Of a stretch of 64,000 nucleotides of DNA, positions 48,490 to 63,538 are shown in pieces. The notes below the pieces were generated by a model that saw nothing but the letters and a program-made list of their open reading frames with translations, was not told where the DNA came from and made no database searches. Each line of letters starts with the position of its first letter. Position 1 is the stretch's first letter. Made by a program: the position numbers and the translations under genes. This stretch comes from a bacterium (GTDB lineage Bacteria; Patescibacteriota; CPR2; UBA1875; JAJYID01), in the NCBI GenBank assembly GCA_030647205.1, contig JAUSJO010000006.1, forward strand, positions 11,163 through 75,162, written 5' to 3'.

Positions 48490-48575
48490 TGTCTTTCTCC
48501 TTTATTATTTTAATATTTTCTTTCTAATAACTAAATTTGGTTTTGGGCGGGCGCTTTCGCGCCCGCCCGCTTGTT

Positions 48576-49799
48576 TTACAGATAATCCCTCAGATTGTGG
48601 CGAATGAGATTGTCAGAGATTTTAACACCTCTGGTCGCATTATCCAATACCTCAGGATCGACTACACGAGACAACTCCCGGCCTTCCTTGGCAAAAGCAT
48701 TTAGCTTGCCACCATTGAAGAAACCAACTGCATCTGCAGTGTAGTTGCACTGGCCTTGGTTGAGGTAGTAGGCCGCTTGTTCACCGATGCCGACGATATC
48801 AGCGCCAGCTTCCCGGTATTTCTTGATGTCTTCAAGCTTTATGCCGCTTGAGACAACGAGTTTGAAATCAGCCATTCCGGCCTGATCCAACATTTCACGG
48901 GTCTTTTGAACCACGTGCAGCTTCATACCGGCATCGCTTCCTGAGTTTCCGCCGATAACCGCATCAACAACCGGCTCATCATCCAGATCGGCCTTTGAGA
49001 TATCCATACGGCCGCCCGCCAGTTTGATGCCGAGCATTTCGCACGCTTTCTTGGTTGCTCGGAATGTTTCAAAGCAACCGACACTTCTTGTCACAAAGTC
49101 GCCGAGTACAAAGAGTGGCACATTGGGGTTAGCCCTATGAAAGGCGATAGTAGCGCGAATAGTAGCGGCAACGCCCGGATTATCCGTAACCTCTGCGATA
49201 ACTCTCTCCGTCCGGTCATCGAGCCTTAAAGCCCCCCACATTGCGATTTGGGAGTGGCTTTCCGTGCCAATAACCTTGTCGGCCCAACGCGGAACAGTGG
49301 AGATTATCTCTCCTTCTGATAAGGCTCTTGTAGCAATTGCCAGGTCTTCCTGAGCAAGGTATCTTGCTCCCATGAAGACCCATGGCAACTCGTCCTCATC
49401 ATGAGGGAAGTCAGCCGCGAGGGTCCGAAAACGTGTACCGGTCGTCAGATAATGCAGCAGCGTCTCATTTACTAAGAGACTTCTTGCCGGACCTTCCATG
49501 GTCATCGCCGTTTCGTGCTTCTTGAGAGCATGTCCCTCCGGAACAGAGTAGATCGTGATTGAATCGACATCGTCCGGATGGACTAAGGATGCTAGGGCGC
49601 TCAGGAATTCTTTAACTCCAAAGAACCTTGCCCCTTCGTAACGCTGAAAGAGCCGCCAAAATCCGATAGGATTCTGGTTCTCGGCCGCAAGCGCCTTGAT
49701 GCCTCGTGGAAGATAGATATCGACATCGTCAAATGTCAGTTTCGGCTTTAATGTGTTTACCTTGATGGTCATTTTGTGTCCTTTCTTTTCGCGTACCAC
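48576..49799 (-). CDS. pncB: Nicotinate (or nicotinamide) phosphoribosyltransferase family protein
   Basis: ~400 aa with type II PRTase-family architecture. Context with nadE, pncA and Nudix. Assignment is at family level only. Confidence 0.6.
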   Translation of the reverse strand: MVREKKGHKMTIKVNTLKPKLTFDDVDIYLPRGIKALAAENQNPIGFWRLFQRYEGARFFGVKEFLSALASLVHPDDVDSITIYSVPEGHALKKHETAMTMEGPARSLLVNETLLHYLTTGTRFRTLAADFPHDEDELPWVFMGARYLAQEDLAIATRALSEGEIISTVPRWADKVIGTESHSQIAMWGALRLDDRTERVIAEVTDNPGVAATIRATIAFHRANPNVPLFVLGDFVTRSVGCFETFRATKKACEMLGIKLAGGRMDISKADLDDEPVVDAVIGGNSGSDAGMKLHVVQKTREMLDQAGMADFKLVVSSGIKLEDIKKYREAGADIVGIGEQAAYYLNQGQCNYTADAVGFFNGGKLNAFAKEGRELSRVVDPEVLDNATRGVKISDNLIRHNLRDYL

Positions 49800-51091: not shown

Positions 51092-51877
51092 CTAAGGTGC
51101 GGTGAAGAATCCACCGGACGTAACAGCCGACTGGCTAACTTGTATAATAGAATCGCTTACCTGTTGGAAGATCTTCCGGATCTCGGAAGGGCTTGTGCCA
51201 ACCGCGATAACGTCATTGAAACCGATCTCGTCAGCAAGACGCTGCACCTCAGCTTCATCCATCATGCCGTATGTGGTAAAACCGACATAGGCGAGAATGA
51301 ATGTCTCTTGAGCGAGAAGGGCCTTGGTGACCTTTCTGACTTCTGTGTTCGTAACTCTTGAACTGTTATCTTCACCATCGGAGAAGACTACAACCACGTT
51401 CTTGGTACGAACACCGTTGGATCTCAGCTGCTGGCCATAAGCGACTATGCCACTTAAGCCTTTGAGAACCGTGTCGTAAAGCGCTGTCCCGCCGTTCGGG
51501 AAGTAGCTGTTATCCAGATTGGGCGCTTGTTCAACCGGCAGGTAGTCGTGAACTAGATCCGATTGGGTATTGAAAATCCAGTCGGAAATGAAGATGCTCT
51601 CTGCCTTTTTGGAACCCCTCAAGGCATCAAGCAGACCTTCATAGCTCTGAACCACTACGTCACGCGCGCCGCTCATCGAGCCGCTACCGTCATGAATGAC
51701 AGAGACTAGTGTAACCTCGTCCTCGGGGATAAGGTCGATCTCTGTACCTTGACAGCCAGCAAGCGCTACTGCATCGAGGTTTGCTACCATGATCTGACTT
51801 GCCTGTTCATCCAGGCCATCTTCTACTGCTTCCTCGAAGAGATCGTTGACATCATTCATATCAGCCATTTTTGTCAC
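51092..51877 (-). CDS. von Willebrand factor A (vWA) domain protein, TerY-like
   Basis: MIDAS motif DGSGSMSG. Cytoplasmic, ~260 aa. Last gene of the PP2C-kinase-pncA-vWA operon. Confidence 0.7.
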   Translation of the reverse strand: MTKMADMNDVNDLFEEAVEDGLDEQASQIMVANLDAVALAGCQGTEIDLIPEDEVTLVSVIHDGSGSMSGARDVVVQSYEGLLDALRGSKKAESIFISDWIFNTQSDLVHDYLPVEQAPNLDNSYFPNGGTALYDTVLKGLSGIVAYGQQLRSNGVRTKNVVVVFSDGEDNSSRVTNTEVRKVTKALLAQETFILAYVGFTTYGMMDEAEVQRLADEIGFNDVIAVGTSPSEIRKIFQQVSDSIIQVSQSAVTSGGFFTAP

Positions 51878-51891
51878 CTCCTCCTTTTACG

Positions 51892-52881
51892 TTAGCCGAT
51901 CGGATCGGTAGATTTGACTAGCCGTACGCCGAGCTTTTCCATTTCGGCGAGTTCGGCATTGGCGATTTCATCGAACGGAACATCGGGATGTTCCACCGAA
52001 GAGGTGCAGTCCATCAGAAAACGGATTTTGCCGAGGATATCATCCTGACCGGCAAAGTGGTTTACGATGGAGCGCATCGTATCCAGCACACAGTGGCTTT
52101 TCGCCTCGCCGGCTACATAAACCAGGTCGTGTCTGGCAACAAGGTCCAGAAACGGAGTGTTTAAGTCACCGGCCGGGTGCTTGGGATACTTTACTTCGGG
52201 TTCTACGATGGAGTAGTTTTCCGTCTGCGGGATAGAACCCTTGACGAGGAAAACCGGCTGCGAACGCCTGGCAGCGGAGTGGAAGGCAATTGCCTCCATC
52301 AGATTCGGCACCAGTGCCTGACCGGGAGTGCCGATCATGCAGTGGAAGGGCCAGATCATCAGGGTCTTCTTGCCGCCCTTGTCGAGCTCTGTCAGGTATT
52401 TCCGCGTCCATACGGGATCGACTACAGGCCTCCACTTACCATCCTCCACGTCTTTCAGCGTGATCATCGTGTAGGGAGCAGGTGGATTCCCGTTCTCATC
52501 TACCCACCATGTGGAGTAGAAGATCTGAACGGGGATATGCGAGTCGATGCTCGAGGCGATGGTCGTCACTTGATCCAGATTCCGAAAAATCCAGTCAACT
52601 GTCCTTTCTACATCACCGAGAGCATTTGTTACCGGAAGGGCGCCGTTCGGGAAGACGAAGTCGACCTGGAAATCTACATTTACCAGGATGACTTTCTGCT
52701 TATCCTCAGTGGCCGGAGCCACGTTCTGCCGGCGGCCTTCTTCCGTTGCTTCTTGGACCTTCGGTAGTACGAGAGATCCCAAAGTAGAGGGATCATAGAA
52801 AGCTGGAGCTTTCATCTTTTGTTCCTCCTTTTGGAAGTAGTTTTTGGATTTGGCTAACAAGTTTATTTTGCCTTGCCTCAC
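51892..52881 (-). CDS. pncA: Nicotinamidase PncA (isochorismatase-family cysteine hydrolase) with N-terminal extension
   Basis: ILVNVDFQVDF (catalytic Asp region), IWPFHCMIGTPGQAL (PncA WPxHC signature), VAGEAKSHCVLDT (catalytic Cys). Its start overlaps the kinase stop by 4 nt. Confidence 0.7.
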   Translation of the reverse strand: MRQGKINLLAKSKNYFQKEEQKMKAPAFYDPSTLGSLVLPKVQEATEEGRRQNVAPATEDKQKVILVNVDFQVDFVFPNGALPVTNALGDVERTVDWIFRNLDQVTTIASSIDSHIPVQIFYSTWWVDENGNPPAPYTMITLKDVEDGKWRPVVDPVWTRKYLTELDKGGKKTLMIWPFHCMIGTPGQALVPNLMEAIAFHSAARRSQPVFLVKGSIPQTENYSIVEPEVKYPKHPAGDLNTPFLDLVARHDLVYVAGEAKSHCVLDTMRSIVNHFAGQDDILGKIRFLMDCTSSVEHPDVPFDEIANAELAEMEKLGVRLVKSTDPIG

Positions 52882-54722
52882 CTCTTTCTTATCAGGAATA
52901 CTTTATTGTCGCTTACGACAACGATATTCCCCTGAAAGCCGTGGAGTTTTTCATCTCCCTGGATGAATTTGTCAGTTCCGGTAAACTCGAAAGTGCTACC
53001 TTTTGTGAGAGACTTTCCTTTTAGCCCATTTGCCGTGGCAAAAAGAAGCGAACCATTACCTAGGGTCGCACCCTGTAAGTTACCGTGATCTTCATCATTG
53101 TATGGTTCACGACTCTTAAAGAGAGAAACGCCTTTGTCACTTATATAATCAAGTAGGACAAATGCTTTACCTTTCTTTTTCGTCTCACGGATAACCAGAG
53201 TGCCCTTGGTGTCAAACCGGGCATTTAAGGAAACTAGCTTCTCGCCTTTCTCGAGTTCCCTAACATCAGCTTCATAACTGGCTCCGTTTATCAGGACCCG
53301 GTAGACCCACTTATCGAATATCCGACTAACCACTACGAGCTTTTCTTTGTCACCAACAGTTTCTCCATGAAACCAGGTCTGTTCATCGGCTATAGTGGTA
53401 ACAGTTCTGCTAACGAGATTCCCTGCCATCATTTCTGACTTTAGGAGAATACCGCCGGCCGCTCTGTATAGTGAGTCTTTAGTGCCGGATTTTACGGGAT
53501 AGTTTTGGAACAAATCGGTTGTGGTTTTTGTAACCACTGAACCATCATCTGTATCCAAGACTATCAGTCGCTCGGAGCCTTTTCTCAACAAAATTACTTT
53601 GTCGAGAGCAATGTCGAAACCCAGATCGGGAGCTACGGGGAAAAGAACAGTCTTCTGTGTTTTTCCTCCTCTCCATGTATGTAGCACTGCCATTCCATTC
53701 TCGTAGGCAATAGCATAAAGCTTGTTGCCAACTAGTTTGGAGTAGATAAAATGCCCGGACGTCTCAGAAATCATAGATATCTCATAGTCGAGAATAATCT
53801 TCTGATTTATTACAAACGCCGACTTTGTGCTGCATACCGGGCACTGACGCCTACTGTGAGGAAAATACTCATGACACTTAGGACATTCTATTAAGATGCC
53901 GTTATATTCCTCGAGAATGTTCTTTGGAAGTTGGCCTATACGGCCTTTTTCGAAAGTTTTCTCGAAGTATTCAAGCAGTGCGTCAGAAAGTATTTCCCTA
54001 CTTAGGGCAAATTTCGGATAACGCACATCTTTATCAAATGCAGTTACTTTCTTTTTTGCCCTTTCGGTCAGCTGGTTTATCTTGGGGTGAACACCTCCGT
54101 AAGGATGGACTAGAAGTAGTGAACGGAACAGAAGCACTGCGAAGCTGTACCAGTCCGTCTCGGGGGTAAAGACCAAACCACTGGTAAGATCTTTATTATA
54201 GAGAGCCGGACTTAGGAATGGCTCTGTTGCCACTTGGCAAGGAAACCGATCAAACTGAAAGCTATCTACATCTATGAAATAGACTTGGTCTTTCAGGAAG
54301 ATCTCGTTTAAGTCATTTAAGTCTCCAACCACGAAGCCGGCTCTGTGCAGTTTTTCAACTGTACTATAAGCATTCAGAAAGACATCAGTAACATCTTTGA
54401 TATTGATTCCGCTGGTTTTTCTGAAGTTTCGATTGCTCAGTTTCGCCAGCGGTTCTGCCCCAGGATCAGCAAGTGGCATCATATATCCAACCACTCTGCC
54501 GTTTCCTTCCGCTTTTACCAGTTCACGAGGTGCAAGCACCCGATCCGGTAAAAGCGGCCCTTTCTTGAGGAGAGCTTGCAGTTTCTGTGTTTTTTCTCTG
54601 CTCGGCTTGTGGAATATCTTGTATGCAGCCTTTCCTTTCTTTATTACTACTGCCTCGCCACCGGTTCCCAGCACATCTTTCGGGTTGAGATTGATGACTT
54701 TTCCCTGCACCACGACTCTCAT
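52878..54722 (-). CDS. Protein kinase-like (Ser/Thr kinase fold) protein with central zinc-ribbon and a large C-terminal beta-rich domain
   Basis: Gly-loop LGTGGEAVVIKKGKAAYKIF, catalytic-loop-like HRAGFVVGDLNDLN, and a DFG-like IDVDSF. Then CPKCHEYFPHSRRQCPVC. 614 aa. Confidence 0.65.
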   Translation of the reverse strand: MRVVVQGKVINLNPKDVLGTGGEAVVIKKGKAAYKIFHKPSREKTQKLQALLKKGPLLPDRVLAPRELVKAEGNGRVVGYMMPLADPGAEPLAKLSNRNFRKTSGINIKDVTDVFLNAYSTVEKLHRAGFVVGDLNDLNEIFLKDQVYFIDVDSFQFDRFPCQVATEPFLSPALYNKDLTSGLVFTPETDWYSFAVLLFRSLLLVHPYGGVHPKINQLTERAKKKVTAFDKDVRYPKFALSREILSDALLEYFEKTFEKGRIGQLPKNILEEYNGILIECPKCHEYFPHSRRQCPVCSTKSAFVINQKIILDYEISMISETSGHFIYSKLVGNKLYAIAYENGMAVLHTWRGGKTQKTVLFPVAPDLGFDIALDKVILLRKGSERLIVLDTDDGSVVTKTTTDLFQNYPVKSGTKDSLYRAAGGILLKSEMMAGNLVSRTVTTIADEQTWFHGETVGDKEKLVVVSRIFDKWVYRVLINGASYEADVRELEKGEKLVSLNARFDTKGTLVIRETKKKGKAFVLLDYISDKGVSLFKSREPYNDEDHGNLQGATLGNGSLLFATANGLKGKSLTKGSTFEFTGTDKFIQGDEKLHGFQGNIVVVSDNKVFLIRKR

Positions 54723-54725
54723 TTC

Positions 54726-55451
54726 TCACCCTCCTTCCGTCTGGATTTTCTCGATCGTTATCAAGGTTGCATCGTCTGAGAAGTGCTTTTTCTTTGAGTA
54801 AACGTTTAAGAGGCGCTGAACTCCATTTGGATGTTCTTTGCCCCAGAACTCGTTTATCAGCTCCGGCTCAAAGCCGTCACTTGCTATGGCAACTCTCTGA
54901 ACTTTCTGCAGATTAACCTCTATCCTCTTGAAACTGACTTGCTTTCCGAATAGACGGTAAGCGAAGTAGGCCGGTGTGTTATCCTCATCAATGACGAGAA
55001 CATCATCATCAATGAATATAGTTCCATCACCGCTTGAGAATATCACCAGTTTTTTTCCGTCAGTCACAAACCCTAAAATAGTGGCCAAGAGATTATCTTG
55101 GACAAATGGAGTCTGCCACCAGCCCCTTGAAAGTTCATCGAGAAAATCACCTGTTGAATCTTCGATGTGATCAACGATCTCTTCCAAGGACCATCTTTGG
55201 CATATTCTCGGAACTGTGCTTTCACCAAGAATGCTTACTACCCTTTGAACAATGAGATTTGCCCCGACCTCGCTGGTCTTGGCGCTCCCGCATCCATCAG
55301 AGAGAATACCCGCTCGGAGGATTTTTGGTTCTCCGAACAGCGACTTGATTGGTTCCGGCTCATAGATCTGGTAAGCATCCTGACAGTTTTTACCTATCAA
55401 GGAATGTTGCCTTCCTATAACCTTGCCTCCCCTTATTCTAAGAGTGTCCAT
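54726..55451 (-). CDS. PP2C-family (PPM) Ser/Thr protein phosphatase
   Basis: GRQHSLIGKNCQDAY (the RxxxxNxDA motif), SDGCGS, IASDGF, DDATLI. Confidence 0.75.
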   Translation of the reverse strand: MDTLRIRGGKVIGRQHSLIGKNCQDAYQIYEPEPIKSLFGEPKILRAGILSDGCGSAKTSEVGANLIVQRVVSILGESTVPRICQRWSLEEIVDHIEDSTGDFLDELSRGWWQTPFVQDNLLATILGFVTDGKKLVIFSSGDGTIFIDDDVLVIDEDNTPAYFAYRLFGKQVSFKRIEVNLQKVQRVAIASDGFEPELINEFWGKEHPNGVQRLLNVYSKKKHFSDDATLITIEKIQTEGG

Positions 55452-55561: not shown

Positions 55562-55582
55562 ATAGTGTTTATATAACACTAT
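55562..55582. promoter_or_regulatory. 21-bp palindrome aTAGTGTTtatatAACACTAt (candidate NrtR-type operator, site 1) upstream of the PP2C-kinase-pncA-vWA operon
   Basis: Perfect 8-bp arms. The same half-sites recur at 55611-55629 and 57647-57665. Confidence 0.55.
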
Positions 55583-55610: not shown

Positions 55611-55629
55611 TAGTGTATATGTGACACTA
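55611..55629. promoter_or_regulatory. Palindrome TAGTGT-atatgtg-ACACTA (candidate operator, site 2)
   Basis: Read from the sequence. Lies 49 bp from site 1. Confidence 0.5.
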
Positions 55630-55697: not shown

Positions 55698-56384
55698 TTA
55701 TTTCTTTAAGAATTGTCCAAATGGATTGCTAATAAATCGAATGTCTTTGTCCGTGAACTGATACATTATTGCCGGACGATGAGCGCCACCCTCTTTCATC
55801 TTTGTGGCCTTGATCATTCCGGTACTTAGGATCTTTCTTCTGAAGTTTCTTTTATCGATATCCCGACCCAAAACTATCTCATAAACTTTCTGAAGATCTG
55901 TCAAAGAAAAGTATTTGGGGAGCAAACTATAAACAACATTTGTATATTCCATTTTCCAGACTAATCTTTTTGTCGCATAGCTCAGTATTTCATTATGATC
56001 AAAAGCGAGTTTTGGAATCTTTTTTAAAGGCTGCCATTTCAATCCTTTAGTATCTTTACCGTTTTTAGCAGACACTGCTTCGGCGCTGACAAGGGCAAAG
56101 TAAGCAATGGAAATTACTCTTCCTCTTGGATCTCTTTTTGGGTCACCAAACGTATAGAGCTGCTCCAGATAGACGTCCTTTACTCCTGTTTTTTCGAATA
56201 AAGTTCTCTGAGCCGCCTCTTCGAGATCTTCTTTTTCACCTACAAAACCTCCCGGAAGAGACCATCCTTCCGGTCCATATGTCCTCTCTACCGTTAAAAC
56301 ATTCAGCTCGTCGTCAATGATCGTAAAGATAACTACGTCCGTAGCAACTGATGGAGGGATAAAATTGTCTTTTTTTCTGCTCAT
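55698..56384 (-). CDS. nrtR: Nudix-related transcriptional regulator NrtR-like (Nudix domain plus C-terminal winged helix)
   Basis: Degenerate Nudix box GGFVGEKEDLEEAAQRTLFEKTGV. C-terminal LTDLQKVYEIVLGRDIDKRNFRRKILSTGMIKAT...GGAHRPAIMYQF matches the NrtR wHTH pattern as I recall it. Sits within an NAD-metabolism neighbourhood. Confidence 0.6.
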   Translation of the reverse strand: MSRKKDNFIPPSVATDVVIFTIIDDELNVLTVERTYGPEGWSLPGGFVGEKEDLEEAAQRTLFEKTGVKDVYLEQLYTFGDPKRDPRGRVISIAYFALVSAEAVSAKNGKDTKGLKWQPLKKIPKLAFDHNEILSYATKRLVWKMEYTNVVYSLLPKYFSLTDLQKVYEIVLGRDIDKRNFRRKILSTGMIKATKMKEGGAHRPAIMYQFTDKDIRFISNPFGQFLKK

Positions 56385-56776
56385 TATATTGCTCCTATGC
56401 TTTTCATATATTCTTCATATCTTCTGACAAACTCCTCGATATCATCTTTGTATACCCTAACTTCATGATAATCATCCGGATTGCCCTTTATCCCAATTCC
56501 ATCCCCTAAATAGGGGTATTCATCAGAAAAATTTTTGTTAATATAGCGGCTGCCGTACTGGCTTTGTTTGCCTAAAAGATCATGCGATATCACACCAAAT
56601 TTTACAAATCCTTCCTGATCTATTTCTGCAAAAATTTCCGGTAATTCTCCACCTCTGTTTTTTCTATGCCAATCATCATTTTCCTTTGCTTTCTCTAGAG
56701 CTTCTAACACCCGAGTATGCAAATCCTTTTCTTGAACCTCCTCTTGTCCTTCTTCTGTTTTTGGTATTTCTCCCAT
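56384..56776 (-). CDS. Hypothetical 130-aa protein between nadK and nrtR
   Basis: ORF track. Its stop overlaps the nrtR start. Confidence 0.4.
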   Translation of the reverse strand: MGEIPKTEEGQEEVQEKDLHTRVLEALEKAKENDDWHRKNRGGELPEIFAEIDQEGFVKFGVISHDLLGKQSQYGSRYINKNFSDEYPYLGDGIGIKGNPDDYHEVRVYKDDIEEFVRRYEEYMKSIGAI

Positions 56777-56807: not shown

Positions 56808-57647
56808 TCAGTTTTTGTCATATGCTCTGACGGCTACATTATGGTTAGATAAGTTAAACTTTTTCTCTAACGCCTCATAAAAATGATCTTTGTTAAAAAG
56901 AACCATACGATAATAATGAGATTTTCTAAGCTTCACCACATCTCCCTCTTTTAGAGGAATACCCTTTGATCCGTCAACAGAAAGAAATGCTTCTTCTCCC
57001 TCGATATTTTTAAGCTCAGTAACCTCCGTCTCAGGCACCAGGATTGTGGGGACAGGAAGTCCCTGCGGGCATATGGAAGTGACAAAGAAACATTTTACAC
57101 CCGGAGCGGCAATAGGCCCCCCGGCAGAAAGGTTATATGCGGTGGAACCTGTTGTCGTAGAAACCAAAACGCCGTCTCCTCTAAACTTTACCCGATGAGT
57201 GCCACCCACAGAAACCCCGACAGTTACAACCGAAGATAATCCCTTCACCACTACATCATTTACAACATAATCTGACCTGACAAGATTGCCCCCACTCATA
57301 AGGTCAGCTAAGATCCCGACCCTTTCCTGCAAATGATAATCTTTGCCTTCTTCGCCCTTAACAAATTGAAGAACCTTCTCGGCCGCATCCTCTTCCTCAA
57401 CCACCGCTAGAAATCCTACTCTACCGGCATTAACACCTAAAATAGGGATGTCTTTTTCTTTGGCAAATCGTATTGCTTCTATAATAGTACCGTCACCACC
57501 AATAGCAATAACCGCCTGAACGTCATGATCAGCTTCTTTTGCCGGAACGACTTCTACACCTTCTTTATCCAAAGCAGAGGCAATTACCTTTGAGATCTTG
57601 ACTGCTTTTTCCCTGCCCTCATTTACAACTACTGCTATTTTTTTCAT
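56808..57647 (-). CDS. nadK: NAD+ kinase NadK (PpnK)
   Basis: GGDGT, NDVVV and TTTGSTAYNLSAGGPI motifs. The start is taken at MKKIAVVV (the ORF track extends 15 codons further, to 57692). Confidence 0.8.
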   Translation of the reverse strand: MKKIAVVVNEGREKAVKISKVIASALDKEGVEVVPAKEADHDVQAVIAIGGDGTIIEAIRFAKEKDIPILGVNAGRVGFLAVVEEEDAAEKVLQFVKGEEGKDYHLQERVGILADLMSGGNLVRSDYVVNDVVVKGLSSVVTVGVSVGGTHRVKFRGDGVLVSTTTGSTAYNLSAGGPIAAPGVKCFFVTSICPQGLPVPTILVPETEVTELKNIEGEEAFLSVDGSKGIPLKEGDVVKLRKSHYYRMVLFNKDHFYEALEKKFNLSNHNVAVRAYDKN

Positions 57648-57665
57648 AGTGTTATTATAACACAT
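57647..57665. promoter_or_regulatory. Palindrome TAGTGTTattatAACACA (candidate operator, site 3), abutting the nadK start and containing a TATAAT -10-like hexamer on the minus strand
   Basis: Same half-sites as sites 1 and 2. Also sits in the divergent region shared with the NMNAT-like/MTase gene. Confidence 0.5.
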
Positions 57666-57742
57666 CATATCAAAGTGTCTATTGATCTTCATGCCTCAAA
57701 GATCTAATGCTATAATAACTGAGAAGGCATAACTATAAATCT

Positions 57743-59344
57743 ATGACATATATATTATTTCCCGGCAGACATCACCTCCTAACAAACTTTCAATTTGATT
57801 ATCTAAATCAAATAGCCAAAGAAGGGTTAGCGGGTATAAAAGATATTGATGGTAAATCCTTCTCGCCAAACGAGAAAGTTGATGAAGTTGTTTTCGCTAT
57901 TACCTCTGCAAATCACGCAAATACCAGAAGGAATCCATTGCCGCTATATCAAAGAGCAATGGCTGTCCAAGATTTCTCGCACGATCTCCCTATAAAAACC
58001 ACGATATACGATATTAACGATATCGGGGTCAGCGAGAGCTTTGCCGACTATGTTCTAAAGAGAATCTATAGCCGCAGTGAGGGAAGCCTAAAACTAACTC
58101 CCGATAATACTATTGTCGCATGCTCTACACCTGTGCTTGAAATGTACAAGAAACTAGGCTTTAGGATCTTACCCGTAGAACTCCTATCCAAAGATTTCAA
58201 AAGATATGCAGACAATTTGCCATGGGAAATAATCGAAGAAGTCGCAAATATCCAAGACAACTGGATGGAGAATAAACTATATAAGGGAAAAACCCATCCA
58301 GCCTCGAAAAGACTATGGGAAACTTATGATATTGGAGACAAAGTCCAGCAGCTCTTTAGAGACACTATAATAGGAGAAGATGGCGATATTACAGAGACTA
58401 GAGATTACAATACCTATGTGCGTTCCATGGATCATAGTACCGAACAAAAATACTCCGAAACTTCAAGTTTTGTCAAACCGGGGAGAATTGGCGACATCGG
58501 ATGTGCCGTAGGATCATGGATCAAGTTTGCCTGCCAAGACTCAAGACTGGCAGAGTCAGATTTCTATGGGATAGAAGTGACTAGAAAACTCTACGATATT
58601 TGCGAACAAAGAAAGGATAATGGAGAGTTTTCTAGTGATTACGTGTTTTTCTCAAGAAAAAATGCCATAACCGGCCTGGTCTTTGAACCCGATAGCATGG
58701 ATAGTATCCTAACATCATCCCTAACTCATGAGATAGAATCTTATGGAGGCAGAGGAGATCTTCTTAAATTTATTAAAAACCGAGCTGCCGAGTTAAATGA
58801 GGGGGGACGATGGATAAACAGGGACGTTGTCGGCCCGGACGATGGTAGCAAAACTGTATATTTGGAGCTAAACTCTTCAGATGGAAGGAATGATGACTAT
58901 GATCAAGCAATTGGAAACCGAGATAAGTTAAAGGAATATTTAGACGGTCTATCTACTTATGCTAAATTTTTACGATTCTCCAAAGATTTTAGGAAAAATG
59001 AAAGCGAGCAGGTCAAATATGAAGCTGTCTCTATTGATAATAAAAACCTGATTAAACTACAGCTAAAAGATGCCTGTGAGTTTGTGACTAAAAAGGACTA
59101 TACCGACAACTGGCAAAGTGAAATGCATGAGACTTTCTGTTTCTGGAGTTTTGATGACTGGAAACAACACTTGGAAAAGGCCGGGTTAAAGGTTCATCCG
59201 CAATCAAAAGCTTTCGTAAATCCGTGGGTAATCAAGAAGCGGGTCCAAGGGAAAGTAAAACTCTATACACTACAAGACAAAACACTAAATGAAATCGATT
59301 ATCCTGTCAGTAATATGGTCTTAGTCGCCGAGAAACGCCATTAG
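57743..59344 (+). CDS. Fusion protein: N-terminal NMNAT-like (cytidylyltransferase-fold, NadM-like) domain plus C-terminal class I SAM-dependent methyltransferase domain
   Basis: N-terminus ILFPGRHHLL... and VVFAITSANHANTRRNPLPLYQRAMAV align to archaeal NMNAT IGIGSAQ.SHT.KNPFTAGER..M. C-terminus has MTase motif I (IGDIGCAVGSW), post-I acidic (FYGIEV), motif II and motif III (LNEGGRWI). Confidence 0.55.
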   Translation: MTYILFPGRHHLLTNFQFDYLNQIAKEGLAGIKDIDGKSFSPNEKVDEVVFAITSANHANTRRNPLPLYQRAMAVQDFSHDLPIKTTIYDINDIGVSESFADYVLKRIYSRSEGSLKLTPDNTIVACSTPVLEMYKKLGFRILPVELLSKDFKRYADNLPWEIIEEVANIQDNWMENKLYKGKTHPASKRLWETYDIGDKVQQLFRDTIIGEDGDITETRDYNTYVRSMDHSTEQKYSETSSFVKPGRIGDIGCAVGSWIKFACQDSRLAESDFYGIEVTRKLYDICEQRKDNGEFSSDYVFFSRKNAITGLVFEPDSMDSILTSSLTHEIESYGGRGDLLKFIKNRAAELNEGGRWINRDVVGPDDGSKTVYLELNSSDGRNDDYDQAIGNRDKLKEYLDGLSTYAKFLRFSKDFRKNESEQVKYEAVSIDNKNLIKLQLKDACEFVTKKDYTDNWQSEMHETFCFWSFDDWKQHLEKAGLKVHPQSKAFVNPWVIKKRVQGKVKLYTLQDKTLNEIDYPVSNMVLVAEKRH

Positions 59345-59358
59345 AAAAGTCTATGTCT

Positions 59359-60339
59359 TCATTTTTTAATGAGACCCGGAAACATAACATCAGCAAGATA
59401 ACTTGCTACATTTCTCGATTTTCCTTTACCCGGCATCATGTGCATGCTCAGTCCCGGGTTTGAGTTGACCTCAACAATACCATAACTAGACTTTGTTTGT
59501 GGCTCATCAATGTTTTCGGTCATTATATCTAAACCAATAAAAGGTAAACCTTGAAAAACATCTAACACTTTTTGAGCAATGTCGATAACTGAACTATGCA
59601 CTTCATCTGTAACGTCTTCACTCACTCCTCCCTTAGCCAAGTTTGAGGTCTTTCTTAAATAAATCTTTTCATCTTTTTTTGGTATATACCTGAGATCTTT
59701 ACCAGACTCCTTAAGAAAATTATCAACCTGCCTGTCAAACACAATTGGACAGAGATATCTTTTTTTACGGTCGTCCCTCTTTTTTGACTCGATCTCACCC
59801 AACTCACTTATATTATGTTTACCGTCACCTATAACATGAGCTGGGTCTCTATTAAGAACAGCGTACTTTCCTTCTATAGTAATAAAAACCCGATATTCTT
59901 TGCCGGGGAGATGTTTTTCTACAAGGAAGAGCGTGTTTACACCTGTTTCTTCTTCTAAGTGGTTGACGGCCGACACAAGTTCTCTTTCATTTTTTATCTC
60001 TACAAAAACACTGTCGCCATGAGAACCCCAGTTTGGTTTGACAACTACCGGAAATCCAATCTTTTGAGCGTACTCTACAGCTTCCTTAAATGAATGCGCG
60101 CTAAAAACTTCTCCTTCCGGAGCGCTGATTCCATTTTTCCGAAGAAGATTTTTCGTAAGATATTTATCAGCAGTCATTTTAACCAGATTATAGGGTGAGA
60201 GAGAACTGAACCTATCCAAAAGGAACTCCTTTCGCCCCTCATAAATTACTTCAATGAGTTCTATTTCCGGGTCAGCATCTCTAACTTTGGCCCCACGTCT
60301 TTTAAGTTCATCGACTAGAAGTTTTTGATTGGTATGCAT
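59359..60339 (-). CDS. ATP-grasp family ligase (cyanophycin-synthetase N-terminal / RimK-like)
   Basis: GFPVVVKPNWGSHGDSVFV, HVIGDGKHNISELGE, EVNSNPG are ATP-grasp hallmark segments. Confidence 0.7.
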   Translation of the reverse strand: MHTNQKLLVDELKRRGAKVRDADPEIELIEVIYEGRKEFLLDRFSSLSPYNLVKMTADKYLTKNLLRKNGISAPEGEVFSAHSFKEAVEYAQKIGFPVVVKPNWGSHGDSVFVEIKNERELVSAVNHLEEETGVNTLFLVEKHLPGKEYRVFITIEGKYAVLNRDPAHVIGDGKHNISELGEIESKKRDDRKKRYLCPIVFDRQVDNFLKESGKDLRYIPKKDEKIYLRKTSNLAKGGVSEDVTDEVHSSVIDIAQKVLDVFQGLPFIGLDIMTENIDEPQTKSSYGIVEVNSNPGLSMHMMPGKGKSRNVASYLADVMFPGLIKK

Positions 60340-60371
60340 CTTACCTGTCGAGTATTAAATGTGGCATCTTC

Positions 60372-60890
60372 CTAAGATGACTCACCATTACTATTGATTA
60401 TCAAGCCTCTCCCCGTAGATCTTCCCCCACCGTACCTTCCTCGGTCTGCGCTACCCGACTCACCAGAGGAGTTGCTAGTATTAAATACACCCTTCACTCT
60501 ACCCCCACTCCCTGACTCGTCACTCTTTTCTCTAGAAGACTTACTTTCTGACCTTTGGGCTCTACTGGCTTCCGATTCCCCCATATCACGAGCTGACGAC
60601 TCTCCCTTTTCTGCCTTCCGCTCACCCTCACTATCTGATAACTCTTTCTTTTTTTGATCGATCGTGCGATCAAGTATCTGATTGTCTAAAATCCTCGCCT
60701 TGTCGAAATCTCCGGCATCGAGCGCTTTTCTAAGAGCCCTACGCAGGTCTTTAAGACTCTGGCGCTCCTTATCAGAAAATTCACGGTTAATCTCACCTCT
60801 AGTTCCCTTTTCACCTTTACGGACAATACCCCCTGACTCACCGCTTGTTTCTCGGGGTGATTCGCCTCCTTCACTCATTCTCTCCAACAT
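60372..60890 (-). CDS. Low-complexity S/E/R/G-rich (predicted disordered) protein
   Basis: ORF track. Compositionally biased. Confidence 0.35.
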   Translation of the reverse strand: MLERMSEGGESPRETSGESGGIVRKGEKGTRGEINREFSDKERQSLKDLRRALRKALDAGDFDKARILDNQILDRTIDQKKKELSDSEGERKAEKGESSARDMGESEASRAQRSESKSSREKSDESGSGGRVKGVFNTSNSSGESGSADRGRYGGGRSTGRGLIINSNGESS

Positions 60891-60936
60891 GTTCTCTCTC
60901 CCAATTAGTTAAATTTATAATAACACTGAGACCACA

Positions 60937-61620
60937 CTACTTGCAATAAATAGCTACCTTATGCTCTATTTTGCTGCCTTGGACCCTATGTTTTGCTTCT
61001 TTCCCCCATATAAAACCTATAACTTTTCTTGCCTCATCTAGATCCTTAAATTCAAAAAATGTTGTGAAATGCGAGTACTCTCTGAAGCCGTTTTTAACCA
61101 ACCATTCGTTATATTTTTTAGTTCTTTCCAAGGGATCGTTGGTCCTTCCTCTTATTTGTTCAAACTCACCACCTGTATCGTTCTCGACTAAAAATATTTT
61201 GCCTCTCGGCTTCAAGGTTCTTTCAATGTTACAAAGTATATCCTTCCTTCTCTTTTCGTCCTCAACCGTCCCCAATACCCAAGAAGCAAGAGCCACGTCT
61301 ATACTTTTGGATGGTAGCTTCATATCCTCTGCCTGAGTATGCACAAAGTCTATATTATCGTACCCATCAGTGTCTTTTTCTGCCAAGCTAAGCTGATCTT
61401 TCGAGGCGTCAAGAGCCACAATCTTCGGAGCATACGGAGCAAACAGTTTTGTATATTTACCAGAACCGCAACCAAGATCTAGGAGTGTCTTACCTTTCAT
61501 TTCTGAAAGTAATGTTTCAAATATCTTGCCAGGTGCATCCTCTCTTGCACTGAAAAGCCGATAGATCCCGGCCTCTTCATAATAACTTTTCGACTTTTCC
61601 CCTAGACTATACTTCTTCAT
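60937..61620 (-). CDS. Class I SAM-dependent methyltransferase
   Basis: Motif I LLDLGCGSGKYT, post-I acidic residue (ALDAS), motif II/III. Confidence 0.75.
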   Translation of the reverse strand: MKKYSLGEKSKSYYEEAGIYRLFSAREDAPGKIFETLLSEMKGKTLLDLGCGSGKYTKLFAPYAPKIVALDASKDQLSLAEKDTDGYDNIDFVHTQAEDMKLPSKSIDVALASWVLGTVEDEKRRKDILCNIERTLKPRGKIFLVENDTGGEFEQIRGRTNDPLERTKKYNEWLVKNGFREYSHFTTFFEFKDLDEARKVIGFIWGKEAKHRVQGSKIEHKVAIYCK

Positions 61621-61621
61621 A

Positions 61622-63538
61622 TTACACCTTTACTTTCTCGAGATAGGCGATCGCATCCCGATACCCCTTGCCCATAGCACTATCAAAAACAAATTCTTTA
61701 TACCTTGTCCCTTCTATCCCCCCAAACACTTCTTTCCGTCTCTTATGATCGTTGATTTCATTTCTTTTCTTTGAATTATTTTTACTATCGAAGTCATAAA
61801 TATAAGCGAACACTATTTTCCCACCAGTTTTTAATTTTCCCAACAATACAGAGACAATCAGATTCTTAAATTCCGACAAATAATCATCCGTGTTAAACAT
61901 CAGATGCGTATAATCAGAGATATTTGAAAGAATTATAAGATCAAACGTTTCATGCCCGTCTAACTCTTGCCCTAAATTCTTAAGCGATGAAGAAACCCAG
62001 TGATAGCAACCTTCCTTTATGCGTTTTTGAGCCTTACTATATATAACTTCATTCTCCAGATAGAGATTATTGCTTACTTTCCTCTGCTTCTCGTCATATA
62101 TGTTGTTAAATATTTCTGATTCGCGGAGTTTTTCCCCATTGAAATCGAAACGTTCGTAAGCCTGATTAAAAAAATATCTGGCCTGAAAGGATATATCTCC
62201 TTTAACTTCATTGTAGTTATTATACGAAAGAACCTCTTCTCCTTTATCCCTCATTAAAAAATTCTTAAAGGTATTAAGTCCATGACTCTTAAGATAGGCT
62301 ACTTTAAGCTCGGTAAAGTATTGAGCTAAAAGATTTATATCGAAACATTTTACATTATTTGCGCCTAGAAGATACGCATTGATAAGGTGGTCTCCTGAAG
62401 CTCCTACGGTCAGTACGCTCTTTTCTTTAAAATCAAACTTAGGGAAATAGCCTGCTATATTTTCCGTTGTGAAAGAGTAAATCTTGTTATACTCACTGAA
62501 TTTAGGACGCCCGGTTGTCTCATGCAGATGCTCTTCAAAAAAACTGTCAAGTTTCTGCGCGTCTTTTGTCTCATCGATCGCTTCCATCGGACAGTAATCA
62601 ATATTTGCCAAAGCAAGGCGGTCGACCAGAGAACGGTAAGACGATATCTCTTTTGATTTTAGAATCTCATCTAGCCCGTATTTGTGTAAATCTTTGCCAC
62701 TTACATACTGAGGGGCTCTTTCCGTAACCCAAGTACAAGGTGAGACACGACCCTTATGATCTATCGATAGAAATTTATCACCCCCCGGACAAACTCCATC
62801 AACTTTTTCTCCTATCTTTTCGGTAAAACTATGACTTACTTTTATATGTTCCTTGTATTTTTTTGTCAGTATTTCTATCTCATTTTTTAGATCAGTAGCT
62901 AATCTTAAAGAAATAAGATTTTTATTGCCTCTTAGCCTCCCCACTGGCTCAAGCCGAGAGAAGATCACCTCATCTACCCCCAAATCAATGCAAAGCTTGA
63001 CCATATTTTCCATTTTCTCTTCATTTTGAGCAAATATTAAAGAACCCACTCTCGTATATAAACCGTGTTTGACTAGGCTTTTTATCCCTTTAGTTGTTCT
63101 CTCGAAGGACTTTTCTCCTCTCACAATCTCATTTAGTTCTGGCGTGCAGCCGTCTAAGCCAACATGTATCATACTAATATTTAGTTTTTTTAGTTTACTT
63201 GCCAGCTCATCATCGATGACTGACGCATTTGTGGAAATATCAGTCTTTAATCCAACCTTATCGGCAAATATCATTAGTTCTAAGATGTCTTCTCTCAAGA
63301 ATGGTTCTCCCCCAGTAATCTTGAGGTGCGTTATCCCGGCGCTCTTTAGATCTTTGATACATTTTTTCACTTCTCCAGTACTAAGCTCGTCTTTTGGCTT
63401 TTTGGCGGTAGAGCTGAAGATGCAGTGAGGACATCTATAGTTGCATCTGTTGGTTATCTCCCAAATCACTCTCCCTCCATCCTCCGGGATTCGAAATAGA
63501 CAAAATGCATATTTATTTTTTGTAGATATTTTTACCAT
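61622..63538 (-). CDS. Radical SAM / SPASM(twitch)-domain protein fused to a C-terminal SAM-MTase-like (Rossmann) domain
   Basis: CNYRCPHC (CxxxCxxC), ITGGEPFL, auxiliary-cluster region CPGGDKFLSIDHKGRVSPC...C. The C-terminal ~300 aa have MTase-like motifs VLTVGASGD, FDLIILSNISDY and LKTGGKIVFAY. Confidence 0.7.
   Translation of the reverse strand: MVKISTKNKYAFCLFRIPEDGGRVIWEITNRCNYRCPHCIFSSTAKKPKDELSTGEVKKCIKDLKSAGITHLKITGGEPFLREDILELMIFADKVGLKTDISTNASVIDDELASKLKKLNISMIHVGLDGCTPELNEIVRGEKSFERTTKGIKSLVKHGLYTRVGSLIFAQNEEKMENMVKLCIDLGVDEVIFSRLEPVGRLRGNKNLISLRLATDLKNEIEILTKKYKEHIKVSHSFTEKIGEKVDGVCPGGDKFLSIDHKGRVSPCTWVTERAPQYVSGKDLHKYGLDEILKSKEISSYRSLVDRLALANIDYCPMEAIDETKDAQKLDSFFEEHLHETTGRPKFSEYNKIYSFTTENIAGYFPKFDFKEKSVLTVGASGDHLINAYLLGANNVKCFDINLLAQYFTELKVAYLKSHGLNTFKNFLMRDKGEEVLSYNNYNEVKGDISFQARYFFNQAYERFDFNGEKLRESEIFNNIYDEKQRKVSNNLYLENEVIYSKAQKRIKEGCYHWVSSSLKNLGQELDGHETFDLIILSNISDYTHLMFNTDDYLSEFKNLIVSVLLGKLKTGGKIVFAYIYDFDSKNNSKKRNEINDHKRRKEVFGGIEGTRYKEFVFDSAMGKGYRDAIAYLEKVKV

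Follow-up and report, generated by a model that had tools for sequence, protein, structure and literature searches.

A conserved bacterial fusion of a NadM-like domain to a SAM-dependent methyltransferase, associated with NrtR and NAD-metabolism genes

Within a 64,000-nucleotide stretch of DNA from a bacterium of the Patescibacteriota (hereafter the window), a single gene raises the question of what a protein that joins an NMN adenylyltransferase-like domain to a SAM-dependent methyltransferase might do amongst genes of NAD metabolism. A first-pass annotation of the window had described a reading frame of 533 codons, which we were able to confirm on the plus strand with an ATG start, and whose product is organised as follows:

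57743..59344, plus strand: the whole gene, a NadM-like/class I methyltransferase fusion of 533 aa, from the open reading frame and its ATG start
57743..58360, plus strand: N-terminal NadM-type (archaeal-type NMNAT) Rossmann-like domain, aa 1-206, from the AF2 model, Foldseek and profiles
58361..58402, plus strand: flexible inter-domain linker, aa 207-220, with pLDDT below 50 in the full-length model
58403..59341, plus strand: class I SAM-dependent methyltransferase domain, aa 221-533, from Foldseek, NCBIfam and the Pfam matches of distant homologues

The protein is identical to NCBI entry MDO8507904.1 ('MAG: transferase [bacterium]'), and the family to which it belongs lacks a family model and carries no name other than 'transferase'. 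A search for the same fusion in related genomes nevertheless identified homologues forming 1956 clusters at 90% identity and 705 clusters at 50% identity, with the fusion encoded as a single open reading frame in 80 genomes that include both isolates and MAGs. The best 120 matches were all full length (524-561 aa), full-length members kept the two-domain layout down to approximately 30% identity, and an alignment of 27 close homologues revealed a high density of invariant residues in both domains. Carriers include Chryseolinea (the C. soli orthologue is WP_119754218.1), Niastella and Ohtaekwangia. These data establish the fusion protein as a real, widely conserved and uncharacterised bacterial family. 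The first-pass annotation knew of no such fusion, and we likewise found no description of one in the literature on NrtR regulons, nadV/nadM and NMNAT-like domains. A defence or mobile-element origin was considered and set aside, as the protein matched no PADLOC family and tblastn searches of 50,697 phage records and 72,556 plasmid records returned no match; the ARG-centred systems of Iyer et al. 2022 (PMC9503650) proved to be a different system.

Since sequence searches of the PDB gave nothing significant for the methyltransferase half and a best E value of 0.011 for the N-domain, a comparison of folds was needed. An AlphaFold model of aa 1-210 (pLDDT 89.5, pTM 0.88) was compared with the PDB using Foldseek, and the twelve best matches were all archaeal NMNAT structures (E 3e-7 to 6e-6, probability 1.00, target-normalised TM 0.73-0.77), followed by the Francisella NadM-Nudix protein, which bears out the cytidylyltransferase-type fold originally proposed. 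Weaker matches were found to the catalytic domains of CCT (E 3e-3 to 1e-2) and to the NadR structures 1lw7 and 8x7f. At the level of sequence, residues 44-104 align without gaps to the NMNAT of M. jannaschii (1f9a; E 1.1 for the single sequence and 0.011 for the family profile), and the NCBIfam NMNAT model PRK01153 matches the same stretch with an E value of 1.1e-3, at a score (18.6 bits) below its curated cut-off of 127. The fusion protein has no match to Pfam CTP_transf_like and none to a NUDIX domain in Pfam or NCBIfam, its C-terminal half being the methyltransferase. When the N-domain was used alone as a query, most matches were short, partial sequences; the five inspected were truncated or frameshifted fragments, none of them a canonical NadM. 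The methyltransferase-only relatives of the fusion protein, on the other hand, look complete, which suggests that the N-domain is the accessory part. The arrangement of the two domains relative to one another is poorly defined (pTM 0.61 for the whole protein versus 0.88 for the N-domain alone).

Both FPGRHHLLTNFQ and ITSANHANTRRNPLPLYQRAMAV are present in the translation, and the N-domain carries two motifs that invite comparison with NadM:

57761..57793, plus strand: motif 1, P7-G-R-H-H-L-L-T-N-F-Q17, which replaces GRxQPxHxGH, from the alignment and the model register
57902..57955, plus strand: motif 2, T54-S-A-N-H-A-N-T-R-R-N-P-L-P-L-Y-Q-R71, equivalent of the NadM 'GSAxxxxxxxNPFxxxER' loop after strand 2

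Motif 1 is atypical, as had been noted from the sequence. P7, G8, R9, H10, T14 and Q17 are invariant across the 27 close homologues, and in the structural register, which places a strand at residues 2-8 and a helix at 15-27, T14-N-F-Q17 stands at the position of HxGH; HxGH itself occurs in none of the 27 and in none of 56 aligned distant homologues (each of at least 470 aa, three of them outliers that failed to align over the N-domain). Because hhalign and MAFFT give a register that disagrees with the secondary structure of the model, the residue equivalences in motif 1 are uncertain; HxGH is absent in this alternative register as well. Thr is accepted as the first residue of (H/T)xGH within the superfamily, as in the TNGH of PPAT. 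The second ATP-activating signature of such enzymes is a C-terminal SxTxxR of the ISSTxxR type; HxGH, at the start of helix A, serves in activation of the alpha-phosphate and SxTxxR in binding of the beta and gamma phosphates. At the equivalent place in the fusion protein, aa 144-159, between strand 5 and the 'LPWExxE' helix, form a 16-residue segment that is short, variable and non-helical in the model. In archaeal NMNAT this segment is occupied by an SGTxxR helix, and 'LPWEIIEEV' aligns with the helix that follows SGTEVR.

Motif 2 has been kept. The N-domain possesses the NadM loop, in which T54, S55, N57, H58, T61, R63, N64, P65 and R71 are invariant across the 27 homologues; TSANHANTRRNPLPLYQR of the fusion protein aligns without gaps to GSAQKSHTLENPFTAGER of MJ0541, in agreement with the likeness to archaeal NadM claimed for this motif, and the loop also aligns with GVSPVxGSRRNPLDFxTRE of the neighbouring canonical NadM-Nudix protein (hhalign, E 1.7e-4, probability 49%). 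R9, R63 and F100 are conserved and correspond by alignment to R11, R47 and W87 of MtNMNAT, the aromatic F100 thus sitting at what we take to be the position of the nicotinamide-stacking Trp of NadM. On the evidence of the model, the N-domain is a paralogue of NadM-type NMN adenylyltransferases that appears to have been stripped of its catalytic signatures.

The methyltransferase domain is more conventional. Its model has the seven-stranded Rossmann-like methyltransferase fold, with the order of strands and helices read from the model, and its Foldseek matches in the PDB include phosphoethanolamine N-methyltransferases (PMTs), RebM, AtmM, MitM and TleD (E 1.8e-11 to 1e-8). The full-length model gave 649 PDB matches at E <= 1e-3, the best 50 of which were nearly all class I methyltransferases or proteins of that fold. 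The SAM-binding site is readily recognised:

58481..58513, plus strand: SAM-binding motif I, G247-R-I-G-D-I-G-C-A-V-G257, from alignment A1

In alignment A1, G247, R248, G250, D251, I252, G253, C254, A255 and G257 are invariant and V256 nearly so, as is E278 (invariant), the acidic residue that ends the next strand; both the (D/E)xGxGxG motif and the acidic end of strand 2 are therefore present, with Ala in place of the third Gly in D251-I-G-C-A-V-G257. The distant homologue set conserves D253, G255, C256 and G259. The NCBIfam class I methyltransferase model PRK06922 matches the fusion protein with an E value of 9e-7 (27.6 bits versus a cut-off of 602). The claim that the class I domain is complete thus holds for the fold and motif I; it needs qualifying for an inserted lid of some 75 aa (at roughly aa 376-450) and for a Pfam methyltransferase score of 18.1 bits against a cut-off of 27. 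Distant members of the family (P0177, P0155, P0189 and P0267) do exceed the Pfam cut-offs for Methyltransf_31/11/12/25. Stand-alone methyltransferase relatives were also seen, on short contigs whose gene neighbourhoods proved uninformative. By its modelled fold and intact motifs, the C-domain belongs with the small-molecule class I SAM methyltransferases, and its activity is predicted.

Several known systems resemble the fusion in part. Archaeal NadM proteins (MJ0541, 1f9a; M. thermautotrophicum 1ej2, 1hyb and 4yp5-7) have the same Rossmann-like nucleotidyltransferase fold, are its best structural matches, and share the loop 'S-A-x...-N-P-x-x-x-x-R' that follows strand 2, an aromatic residue at the W87 position and the Arg after strand 1. 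The N-domain of the fusion differs from them in lacking both HxGH (T-N-F-Q) and the SxTxxR helix, in having about 40 additional helical residues at its C-terminal end, in being always fused to a methyltransferase, and in scoring far below the family cut-off. The NadM-Nudix proteins (Francisella tularensis 2r5w/2qjt; the Synechocystis slr0787 type) likewise couple a NadM domain to a second catalytic domain related to NAD or ADP-ribose (ADPR) and, like the fusion gene, belong to NrtR-controlled operons, in their case with nadV and prs (PMC2330246); there the partner is a Nudix ADPR pyrophosphatase, whereas here it is a SAM methyltransferase. In NadR (HTH, NMNAT and ribosylnicotinamide kinase) an NMNAT-fold domain is similarly joined to other modules and is used partly in NAD sensing (PMC2330246), but NadR keeps HxGH and an active NMNAT, has no methyltransferase and follows a different regulon logic.

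For the C-domain, the small-molecule methyltransferases (5wp5/4kri, RebM 3bus, AtmM 6uv6 and MitM 8zc7) resemble it in fold, in motif I, in the acidic residue that follows strand 2 and in a His-containing motif after strand 4 ('SSLTHEIESY' in the fusion protein), at 9-15% identity; to these the fusion adds the lid insertion and the family motif KDYxDNWxSEMHExF. The uncharacterised 677-aa proteins of NF005379/PRK06922 share the methyltransferase core, and one distant family member, P0267, also shares their C-terminal extension (aa 328-607 matching model positions 395-676, E 1.6e-30), although the N-terminal ~390 aa of these proteins are different and contain no NadM-like domain.

The regulatory setting of the gene within the window is defined by the spacer that separates it from a divergent operon:

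57647..57665, no strand assigned: predicted NrtR-type operator TAGTGTTATTATAACACAT, containing a 15-bp perfect palindrome at 57649-57663 with a GT-N7-AC core
56808..57647, minus strand: nadK (NAD kinase), first gene of the divergent operon, from Pfam NAD_kinase and NAD_kinase_C and NCBIfam (E 1e-44)
56384..56776, minus strand: orf130, a 130-aa reading frame between nadK and nrtR, defined by position and kept beside nrtR in L006
55698..56384, minus strand: nrtR, a Nudix-related ADP-ribose-responsive repressor, from Pfam NrtR_WHD (E 6e-24) and NUDIX (E 5e-18) and NCBIfam TransRepNtr (E 3.5e-53)

The true start of nadK is likely to be the ATG at 57647, because matches to the family begin at residue 13-17 of the long reading frame; orf130 has no Pfam, NCBIfam or PADLOC family. 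The operator box lies between the fusion gene and the nadK-orf130-nrtR operon, 78 bp upstream of the fusion ATG, where it overlaps the -10 element of a minus-strand promoter (TAGACA-16-TG-TATAAT) and abuts a weaker promoter match on the plus strand. Its GT-N7-AC core agrees with the NrtR consensus reported by Rodionov 2008 (PMC2330246). Perfect copies of TAGTGT-N7-ACACTA were found at 55563-55581 and 55611-55629, and, allowing up to two mismatches, seven sites were observed where 1.5 were expected. In L006, an orthologous locus with 70% identity, the 19 bp of the box at 57647-57665 are identical and form the only long conserved block of the spacer. No Rfam match to a riboswitch was found upstream of the fusion gene at E <= 1. 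Elsewhere within its 64 kb the window carries pncB-like and nadE genes in addition to nadK; an HxGH-type adenylyltransferase (GxFxPxHxGH motif) was not found there.

We then asked whether this association extends to other genomes. NAD or ADP-ribose genes were located within 10 kb of the fusion gene in 65 of 83 Bacteroidota-type loci (78%); by gene, these were NrtR (62), NadV (51), NadM-Nudix (46), Prs (29), ARH (22), Tpt1 (15) and NadK-like (15). NrtR directly adjoins the fusion gene in 24 of the 83, is the only nearby NAD gene in at least three full-length loci, and recurs in 9 of approximately 17 metagenome loci of a distant subfamily, making the family a frequent NrtR partner in Cytophagales, Chitinophagales and other lineages. 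Typically the fusion gene is the last in an operon of NAD/ADPR metabolic enzymes, and in distant lineages, in a subfamily of 30-45% identity, a NadK or NadK-like gene stands immediately upstream of it. The 46 genomes with NadM-Nudix encode the canonical enzyme (ARFQTPYLHxGH) as a separate gene at the same locus. Five Chitinophagaceae loci have NadV without NadM-Nudix nearby. The divergent spacers of Chitinophagaceae contain conserved inverted repeats that may be either NrtR boxes or promoter elements. No NAD gene was found near the fusion gene in members from Leptospira, other Spirochaetota or the actinobacterial type. Judged by its GT-N7-AC box and its clustering, the fusion gene is a member of the NrtR regulon, with NrtR binding predicted; the first-pass annotation's placement of the gene in an NAD regulon with a shared operator is well borne out by the box kept in L006 and by these neighbourhoods.

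Taken together, these observations lead us to favour, at a little short of even confidence, a protein whose methyltransferase half is catalytic and methylates a small NAD-derived metabolite, and in which the NadM-derived domain serves to bind an NAD-related nucleotide and does not make NAD. The N-domain would have kept the mononucleotide side of the NadM pocket, in the form of the TSANHxNTRRNP...R loop and the aromatic residue at the Trp position, while losing both ATP-activating signatures (HxGH having become T-N-F-Q and the SxTxxR helix having gone). By binding its nucleotide, it might then deliver substrate to the methyltransferase or gate it, the candidate methyl acceptors being nicotinamide/nicotinate, NMN/NR, ADP-ribose and an NADP-derived product. 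A single NrtR operator would serve both the promoter of the fusion gene and the divergent nadK-orf130-nrtR operon, and because of this shared operator the gene should be switched on when ADP-ribose accumulates as NAD is consumed. As canonical NadM co-occurs with the fusion, the latter is probably not the NMNAT of the pathway; lying under the ADP-ribose-sensing NrtR, it is likely to correspond to an undescribed step, or point of control, in NAD homeostasis. The first-pass interpretation is in this way partly supported, its proposed pyridine-type methyl acceptor being one candidate and its alternative of a non-catalytic, nucleotide-binding N-domain having gained from the loss of HxGH and SxTxxR and from the NadM-Nudix genes at 46 of 83 loci.

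A more specific form of this reading, which we put forward speculatively and think unlikely, is that the protein is an ADP-ribose-induced enzyme making a methylated NAD-pathway metabolite undescribed in bacteria, with the NadM-derived pseudo-enzyme domain holding the nucleotide. Such an enzyme may be an NMN/NAD-gated nicotinamide or nicotinate N-methyltransferase (a bacterial analogue of the NNMT 'valve'), or one that O-methylates the ribose of NMN, NAD(P) or ADPR.

The most serious competitor, though again an unlikely one, is a true bifunctional enzyme, in which an active NadM-like nucleotidyltransferase with a variant site (G-R-H ... T-x-x-Q) works alongside a methyltransferase acting before or after it, yielding a methylated dinucleotide or leaving the N-domain to serve as the NaMN/NMN adenylyltransferase in organisms like that of the window. 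The conservation of motif 1 is consistent with this: across the family R9, H10, T14 and Q17 vary little or not at all, the degree of conservation of G8-R9-H10, T14 and Q17 is what one would expect of a catalytic site, T-N-x-x is reminiscent of T-N-G-H in PPAT, and R9 and R63 correspond to R11 and R47 of MtNMNAT, residues that contact ATP/NMN and whose mutants are named in PDB titles. The genomic data can be read in the same direction, both in the window, with its pncB-like, nadE and nadK genes and no GxFxPxHxGH motif in 64 kb, and in the five Chitinophagaceae loci with NadV and no NadM-Nudix nearby. Against these points, however, the last His of HxGH has been lost in every member, the SxTxxR helix is absent, the NMNAT family model scores far below its cut-off, and 46 of 83 loci have a canonical NadM-Nudix gene within the same operon.

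Alternatively, the methyltransferase could have its target elsewhere than in NAD metabolism (a protein, an RNA or another metabolite) and be gated by NAD status through an N-domain whose sole role is the allosteric sensing of NMN, NAD or ADPR. An N-domain that lacks catalytic motifs yet keeps its ligand-side residues would suit such a role, as would the occurrence of relatives of the methyltransferase module alone or with other N-termini (P0204, P0227, P0253, P0267 and P0268), the missing NAD context in some lineages, and a PP2C/kinase-like signalling pair in the same NrtR regulon in the window and at L094. We nonetheless consider it improbable, given that the best structural matches are small-molecule methyltransferases rather than protein or RNA methyltransferases and that the gene is usually the last in a NAD/ADPR metabolic operon.

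Far less credible is a phospho-base pathway, in which cytidylyltransferase-like and phosphoethanolamine-methyltransferase-like domains would make or activate phosphocholine-type head groups. The top fold matches of the C-domain include phosphoethanolamine N-methyltransferases from plants, nematodes and Plasmodium, the CCT catalytic domains are among the weaker matches of the N-domain, and on one actinobacterial-type contig there lie a divergent CDP-alcohol phosphatidyltransferase and an inositol-monophosphatase-like gene; but NMNAT matches the N-domain about 10,000-fold better than CCT does, the CDP-alcohol context does not recur in three other actinobacterial-type contigs, and NAD/ADPR genes accompany 78% of Bacteroidota-type loci. 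Finally, the concern that the gene is an artefact, namely two genes joined by a frameshift or in assembly, or a decaying pseudogene, is effectively dismissed by a fusion conserved across hundreds of clusters, full length in its best 120 matches, carried as one reading frame by isolates and MAGs alike, and rich in invariant residues in both domains.

In many bacteria NAD salvage is controlled in response to ADP-ribose mainly through NrtR regulons, whose enzymes (NadV, Prs, NadM-Nudix, PncAB and NadDE) have been thought essentially mapped. The fusion family suggests either a novel modification of small molecules in NAD/ADPR metabolism or a novel pseudo-enzyme sensor, and both readings have a bearing on bacterial recovery from NAD depletion, a topical matter in view of NAD-depleting immunity and NARP-type reconstitution. 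If the fusion does prove to be an ADP-ribose-induced enzyme producing a methylated metabolite, a new branch would be added both to NAD homeostasis in bacteria and to their response to ADPR and NAD depletion.

The fusion gene (57743..59344, plus strand, ATG start) encodes 533 aa, and its product is barely detected by curated sequence libraries. Pfam returned only a sub-threshold match to Methyltransf_23 (18.1 bits against a cut-off of 27), and NCBIfam gave weak matches to the class I methyltransferase model PRK06922 (aa 223-368, E 9e-7) and to the NMN adenylyltransferase (NMNAT) model PRK01153 (aa 44-105, E 1.1e-3). An identical protein, MDO8507904.1 ('MAG: transferase [bacterium]'), sits on a 98-kb contig, and the family carries only the public names 'transferase', 'hypothetical protein' or 'SAM-dependent methyltransferase'.

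When a full-length AlphaFold model built from 27 homologs (pLDDT 85) was compared with the PDB using Foldseek, the matches were class I SAM-dependent small-molecule methyltransferases (E 1.8e-11 to 1e-8), those named for the C-terminal half being phosphoethanolamine N-methyltransferases, RebM, AtmM, MitM and TleD. This half (aa 221-533) carries a ~75-aa insertion ahead of its last helix and strands. For the N-terminal domain, modelled separately (aa 1-210; pLDDT 89.5, pTM 0.88), the 12 best PDB matches were all archaeal NMNAT (1m8j, 1f9a, 4yp6, 1ej2, 1hyb and others; E 3e-7 to 6e-6, target-normalised TM 0.73-0.77), ranked ahead of Francisella NadM-Nudix and then PPAT, human NMNAT and CCT. The family profile also matched the MJ0541 NMNAT across aa 40-103 (E 0.011), and hhalign matched the family to canonical NadM-Nudix proteins encoded beside homologs (E 1.7e-4). 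Since the fold matches agree with the profile and hhalign evidence, the first-pass annotation was correct in describing an NMNAT-like domain joined to a SAM-dependent methyltransferase.

Both N-terminal motifs quoted in that annotation are present in the translation. Across a close alignment of 27 homologs (54-82% identity), P7, G8, R9, H10, T14 and Q17 are invariant, as are T54, S55, N57, H58, T61, R63, N64, P65, R71 and F100. In the model, strand 1 spans aa 2-8 and helix A begins at aa 15, so T14-N-F-Q17 is predicted to occupy the H-x-G-H site of NMNAT; sequence aligners favour a register five residues off, in which the HxGH position is unconserved. HxGH is absent in both registers, and none was found among 56 more distant homologs aligned (>=470 aa, to ~30% identity), a set that counts three outlying proteins (P0251, P0267, P0268) not aligning across the domain. 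The first motif is therefore atypical, as had been claimed, in close and distant homologs alike, while its exact residue register differs between model and aligners. Residues 144-159, at the site of the SGTxxR helix of archaeal NMNAT, are short, variable and non-helical in the model, and the LPWExxE helix, which is conserved, falls opposite the one after SGTxxR in what we take to be the archaeal sequence. On the other side of the NadM pocket, residues are retained: the family conserves the TSANHxNTRRNP...R loop, R63 is the aligned counterpart of MtNMNAT R47, and F100 aligns with an NMNAT Trp that presumably stacks on nicotinamide, these pocket roles being assumed from NMNAT structures and from mutant names visible among the PDB matches.

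In the methyltransferase half, the 27-homolog alignment revealed an intact motif I (D251-I-G-C-A-V-G257), an acidic E278, a post-strand-4 SSLTHEIESY and a family-specific KDYxDNWxSEMHExF. This half looks catalytically competent and, as modelled, resembles small-molecule enzymes.

The same fusion was found widely in relatives. It matches 1956 clusters at 90% identity (E <= 1e-3), the best 120 of which are all 524-561 aa; among representatives at 50% identity there are 705 matches (138 at E <= 1e-30). The family spans Cytophagales, Chitinophagales, Sphingobacteriales, Leptospira and other Spirochaetota, actinobacterial-type and other lineages. A frameshift artefact, which the first-pass annotation had raised, was rejected because full-length members among the 50%-identity representatives retain the two-domain layout. 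All five N-domain-only matches inspected were truncated or frameshifted fragments; some methyltransferase-only relatives look complete. No match was found on phages or plasmids, or to a PADLOC family.

The protein is similar to NadM in fold and one motif, but it lacks HxGH and SxTxxR and falls short on family score, three defining tests of an NMNAT, and is for that reason not classed as one; its modelled structure and its motifs are those of a class I methyltransferase. The NMNAT fusions known so far are NadM-Nudix and NadR, and full-text literature searches returned no report of a NadM-methyltransferase fusion, in line with the first-pass annotation, which likewise knew of none. PRK06922, the nearest named model and itself an uncharacterised methyltransferase family, shares only the C-terminal half. 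The fusion is real and correctly described, and is built from two known folds.

Within the window, nadK, a 130-aa ORF and nrtR run divergently from the fusion gene, on the minus strand.

Features around the fusion gene
57647-57665, within the 95-bp spacer: candidate NrtR operator TAGTGTTATTATAACACAT, which includes a perfect 15-bp palindrome with a GT-N7-AC core
56808-57692, minus strand: nadK as listed, probably overcalled by 15 codons (its family matches start only at residue 13-17)
56384-56776, minus strand: family-less 130-aa ORF between nadK and nrtR, kept beside nrtR in a related MAG locus (L006)
Minus strand, divergent from the fusion gene: nrtR (NrtR_WHD E 6e-24; NUDIX E 5e-18)
55563-55581 and 55611-55629: two perfect NrtR-type boxes, TAGTGT-N7-ACACTA, upstream of a PP2C/kinase-like operon
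54726-55451, 52878-54722, 51892-52881 and 51092-51877, minus strand: genes of the PP2C_2 phosphatase operon, behind the two boxes
47743-49799, minus strand: nadE (NAD synthase, E 7e-71) and a 407-aa phosphoribosyltransferase-like gene (weak QRPTase_N)

The operator's core is that of the NrtR consensus (Rodionov et al. 2008, PMC2330246). On the minus strand a near-consensus promoter (TAGACA-16-TG-TATAAT), whose -10 box the operator overlaps, ends at 57654, inside the operator, and a weaker plus-strand promoter match adjoins the operator; since the box touches promoters of both strands, a single operator could control the fusion gene and the divergent genes. The true nadK start is likely the ATG at 57647, which would leave the gene nearly leaderless from this promoter. 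L006 lacks nadK at this position and has an orthologue of 70% identity; its spacer shares just one long conserved block with that of the window, these same 19 bp, which bears out the box as proposed. The 130-aa ORF had no match in Pfam, NCBIfam or PADLOC.

The operon behind the two perfect boxes comprises genes for a PP2C_2 phosphatase, a 614-aa protein (N-terminus kinase-like by eye, no Pfam match), a 329-aa protein and a weak-vWA protein. Its PP2C/kinase pair also follows the fusion gene and nrtR in a metagenome locus (L094), and the arrangement suggests a putative NrtR-controlled signalling module. The nadE and phosphoribosyltransferase-like genes lie further upstream, and the NAD gene island thus covers ~47.7-59.3 kb. 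Downstream, a convergent four-gene cluster (59359-63538, minus strand) contains a cyanophycin-synthetase-like ATP-grasp gene, a class I methyltransferase gene, a Ser/Gly/Glu-rich ORF of 172 aa and a gene that joins radical SAM/SPASM to a DUF3419-like region; it may be a peptide-modification cluster.

Neighbours were clustered at 83 non-redundant loci, made up of 80 genomes, the window and two other contigs; in 65 of these loci at least one NAD/ADP-ribose gene lies within 10 kb.

Neighbours of the fusion gene (loci out of 83)
NrtR: 62
NadV/NAMPT: 51
Canonical NadM(ARFQTPYLHxGH)-Nudix: 46
Prs: 29
140-aa HAD-like protein: 29
ADP-ribosylglycohydrolase (ARH): 22
Tpt1/KptA: 15
Band_7 and NadK-like pair: 15
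NADAR, called by eye from sequence: 9
PARG-like, called by eye from sequence: 7

These frequencies and the NrtR box in the window uphold the proposed place in an NAD regulon; judged from sequence, the fusion gene is a bona fide NrtR regulon member. The typical Cytophagales order is nrtR-nadM/nudix-nadV-prs-HAD-ARH-fusion gene, and in Chitinophagaceae the fusion gene typically diverges from an nrtR-led operon (21 loci). At least three full-length loci have no NAD gene beside it other than nrtR. Within a 30-45%-identical metagenome subfamily, four loci have nadK directly upstream in the same orientation, NrtR diverges from Band_7, NadK-like and fusion genes in two others, and one has the order fusion gene-NrtR-PP2C-kinase, a module as in the window. 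No NAD genes were found near the fusion gene in the Leptospira, other spirochaete and actinobacterial-type loci examined.

The 140-aa HAD-like protein (L001:4618-5037 and 28 other loci, such as L048 and L045) shows weak similarity to BT0820-type HAD phosphatases, carries D-I-H-G-T where DxDxT is expected, and is often encoded directly before ARH or the fusion gene in the NrtR operon. A Band_7/SPFH protein and a divergent 309-aa NAD-kinase-like protein recur as a pair beside NrtR and the fusion gene (L001:5052-7025; L065, L073, L083, L102, L105, L106), and might correspond to the uncharacterised nrtX-nrtY genes of Rodionov et al. 2008. Five Chitinophagaceae NrtR operons (L050, L052, L067, L082, L084) contain a short Prs-like (265 aa) and a long NadV-like (~496 aa) protein and no NadM-Nudix; the pair is reminiscent of Adps/Namat, the phage NARP1 pair by which NAD is rebuilt from ADP-ribose.

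Two observations make it unlikely that the N-domain serves as the NMNAT of the pathway: over half of the genomes also carry a canonical NadM-Nudix gene at the same locus, and the family as a whole has lost the ATP-activating signatures. We tentatively favour a reading in which ADP-ribose would induce a methyltransferase acting on an NAD-derived small molecule, while the NadM-derived domain would bind an NAD-related nucleotide and act either as substrate carrier or as allosteric gate. The non-catalytic nucleotide-binding role suggested in the first-pass annotation fits the absence of HxGH and SxTxxR, but sits less easily with a G-R-H...T..Q set conserved to catalytic-site level. That conservation argues for the main rival, a genuinely bifunctional enzyme whose nucleotidyl-transfer site is a variant one, as does a window with pncB-like, nadE and nadK genes yet no HxGH adenylyltransferase within 64 kb, nor a GxFxPxHxGH motif anywhere in it; given the lost signatures and the co-encoded NadM-Nudix, we regard this as rather unlikely. 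A gated methyltransferase acting on a non-NAD target is less probable still, and a phospho-base pathway enzyme is very improbable. Its gene neighbourhoods tie the family strongly to NAD regulation that responds to ADP-ribose, a link not remarked on before.
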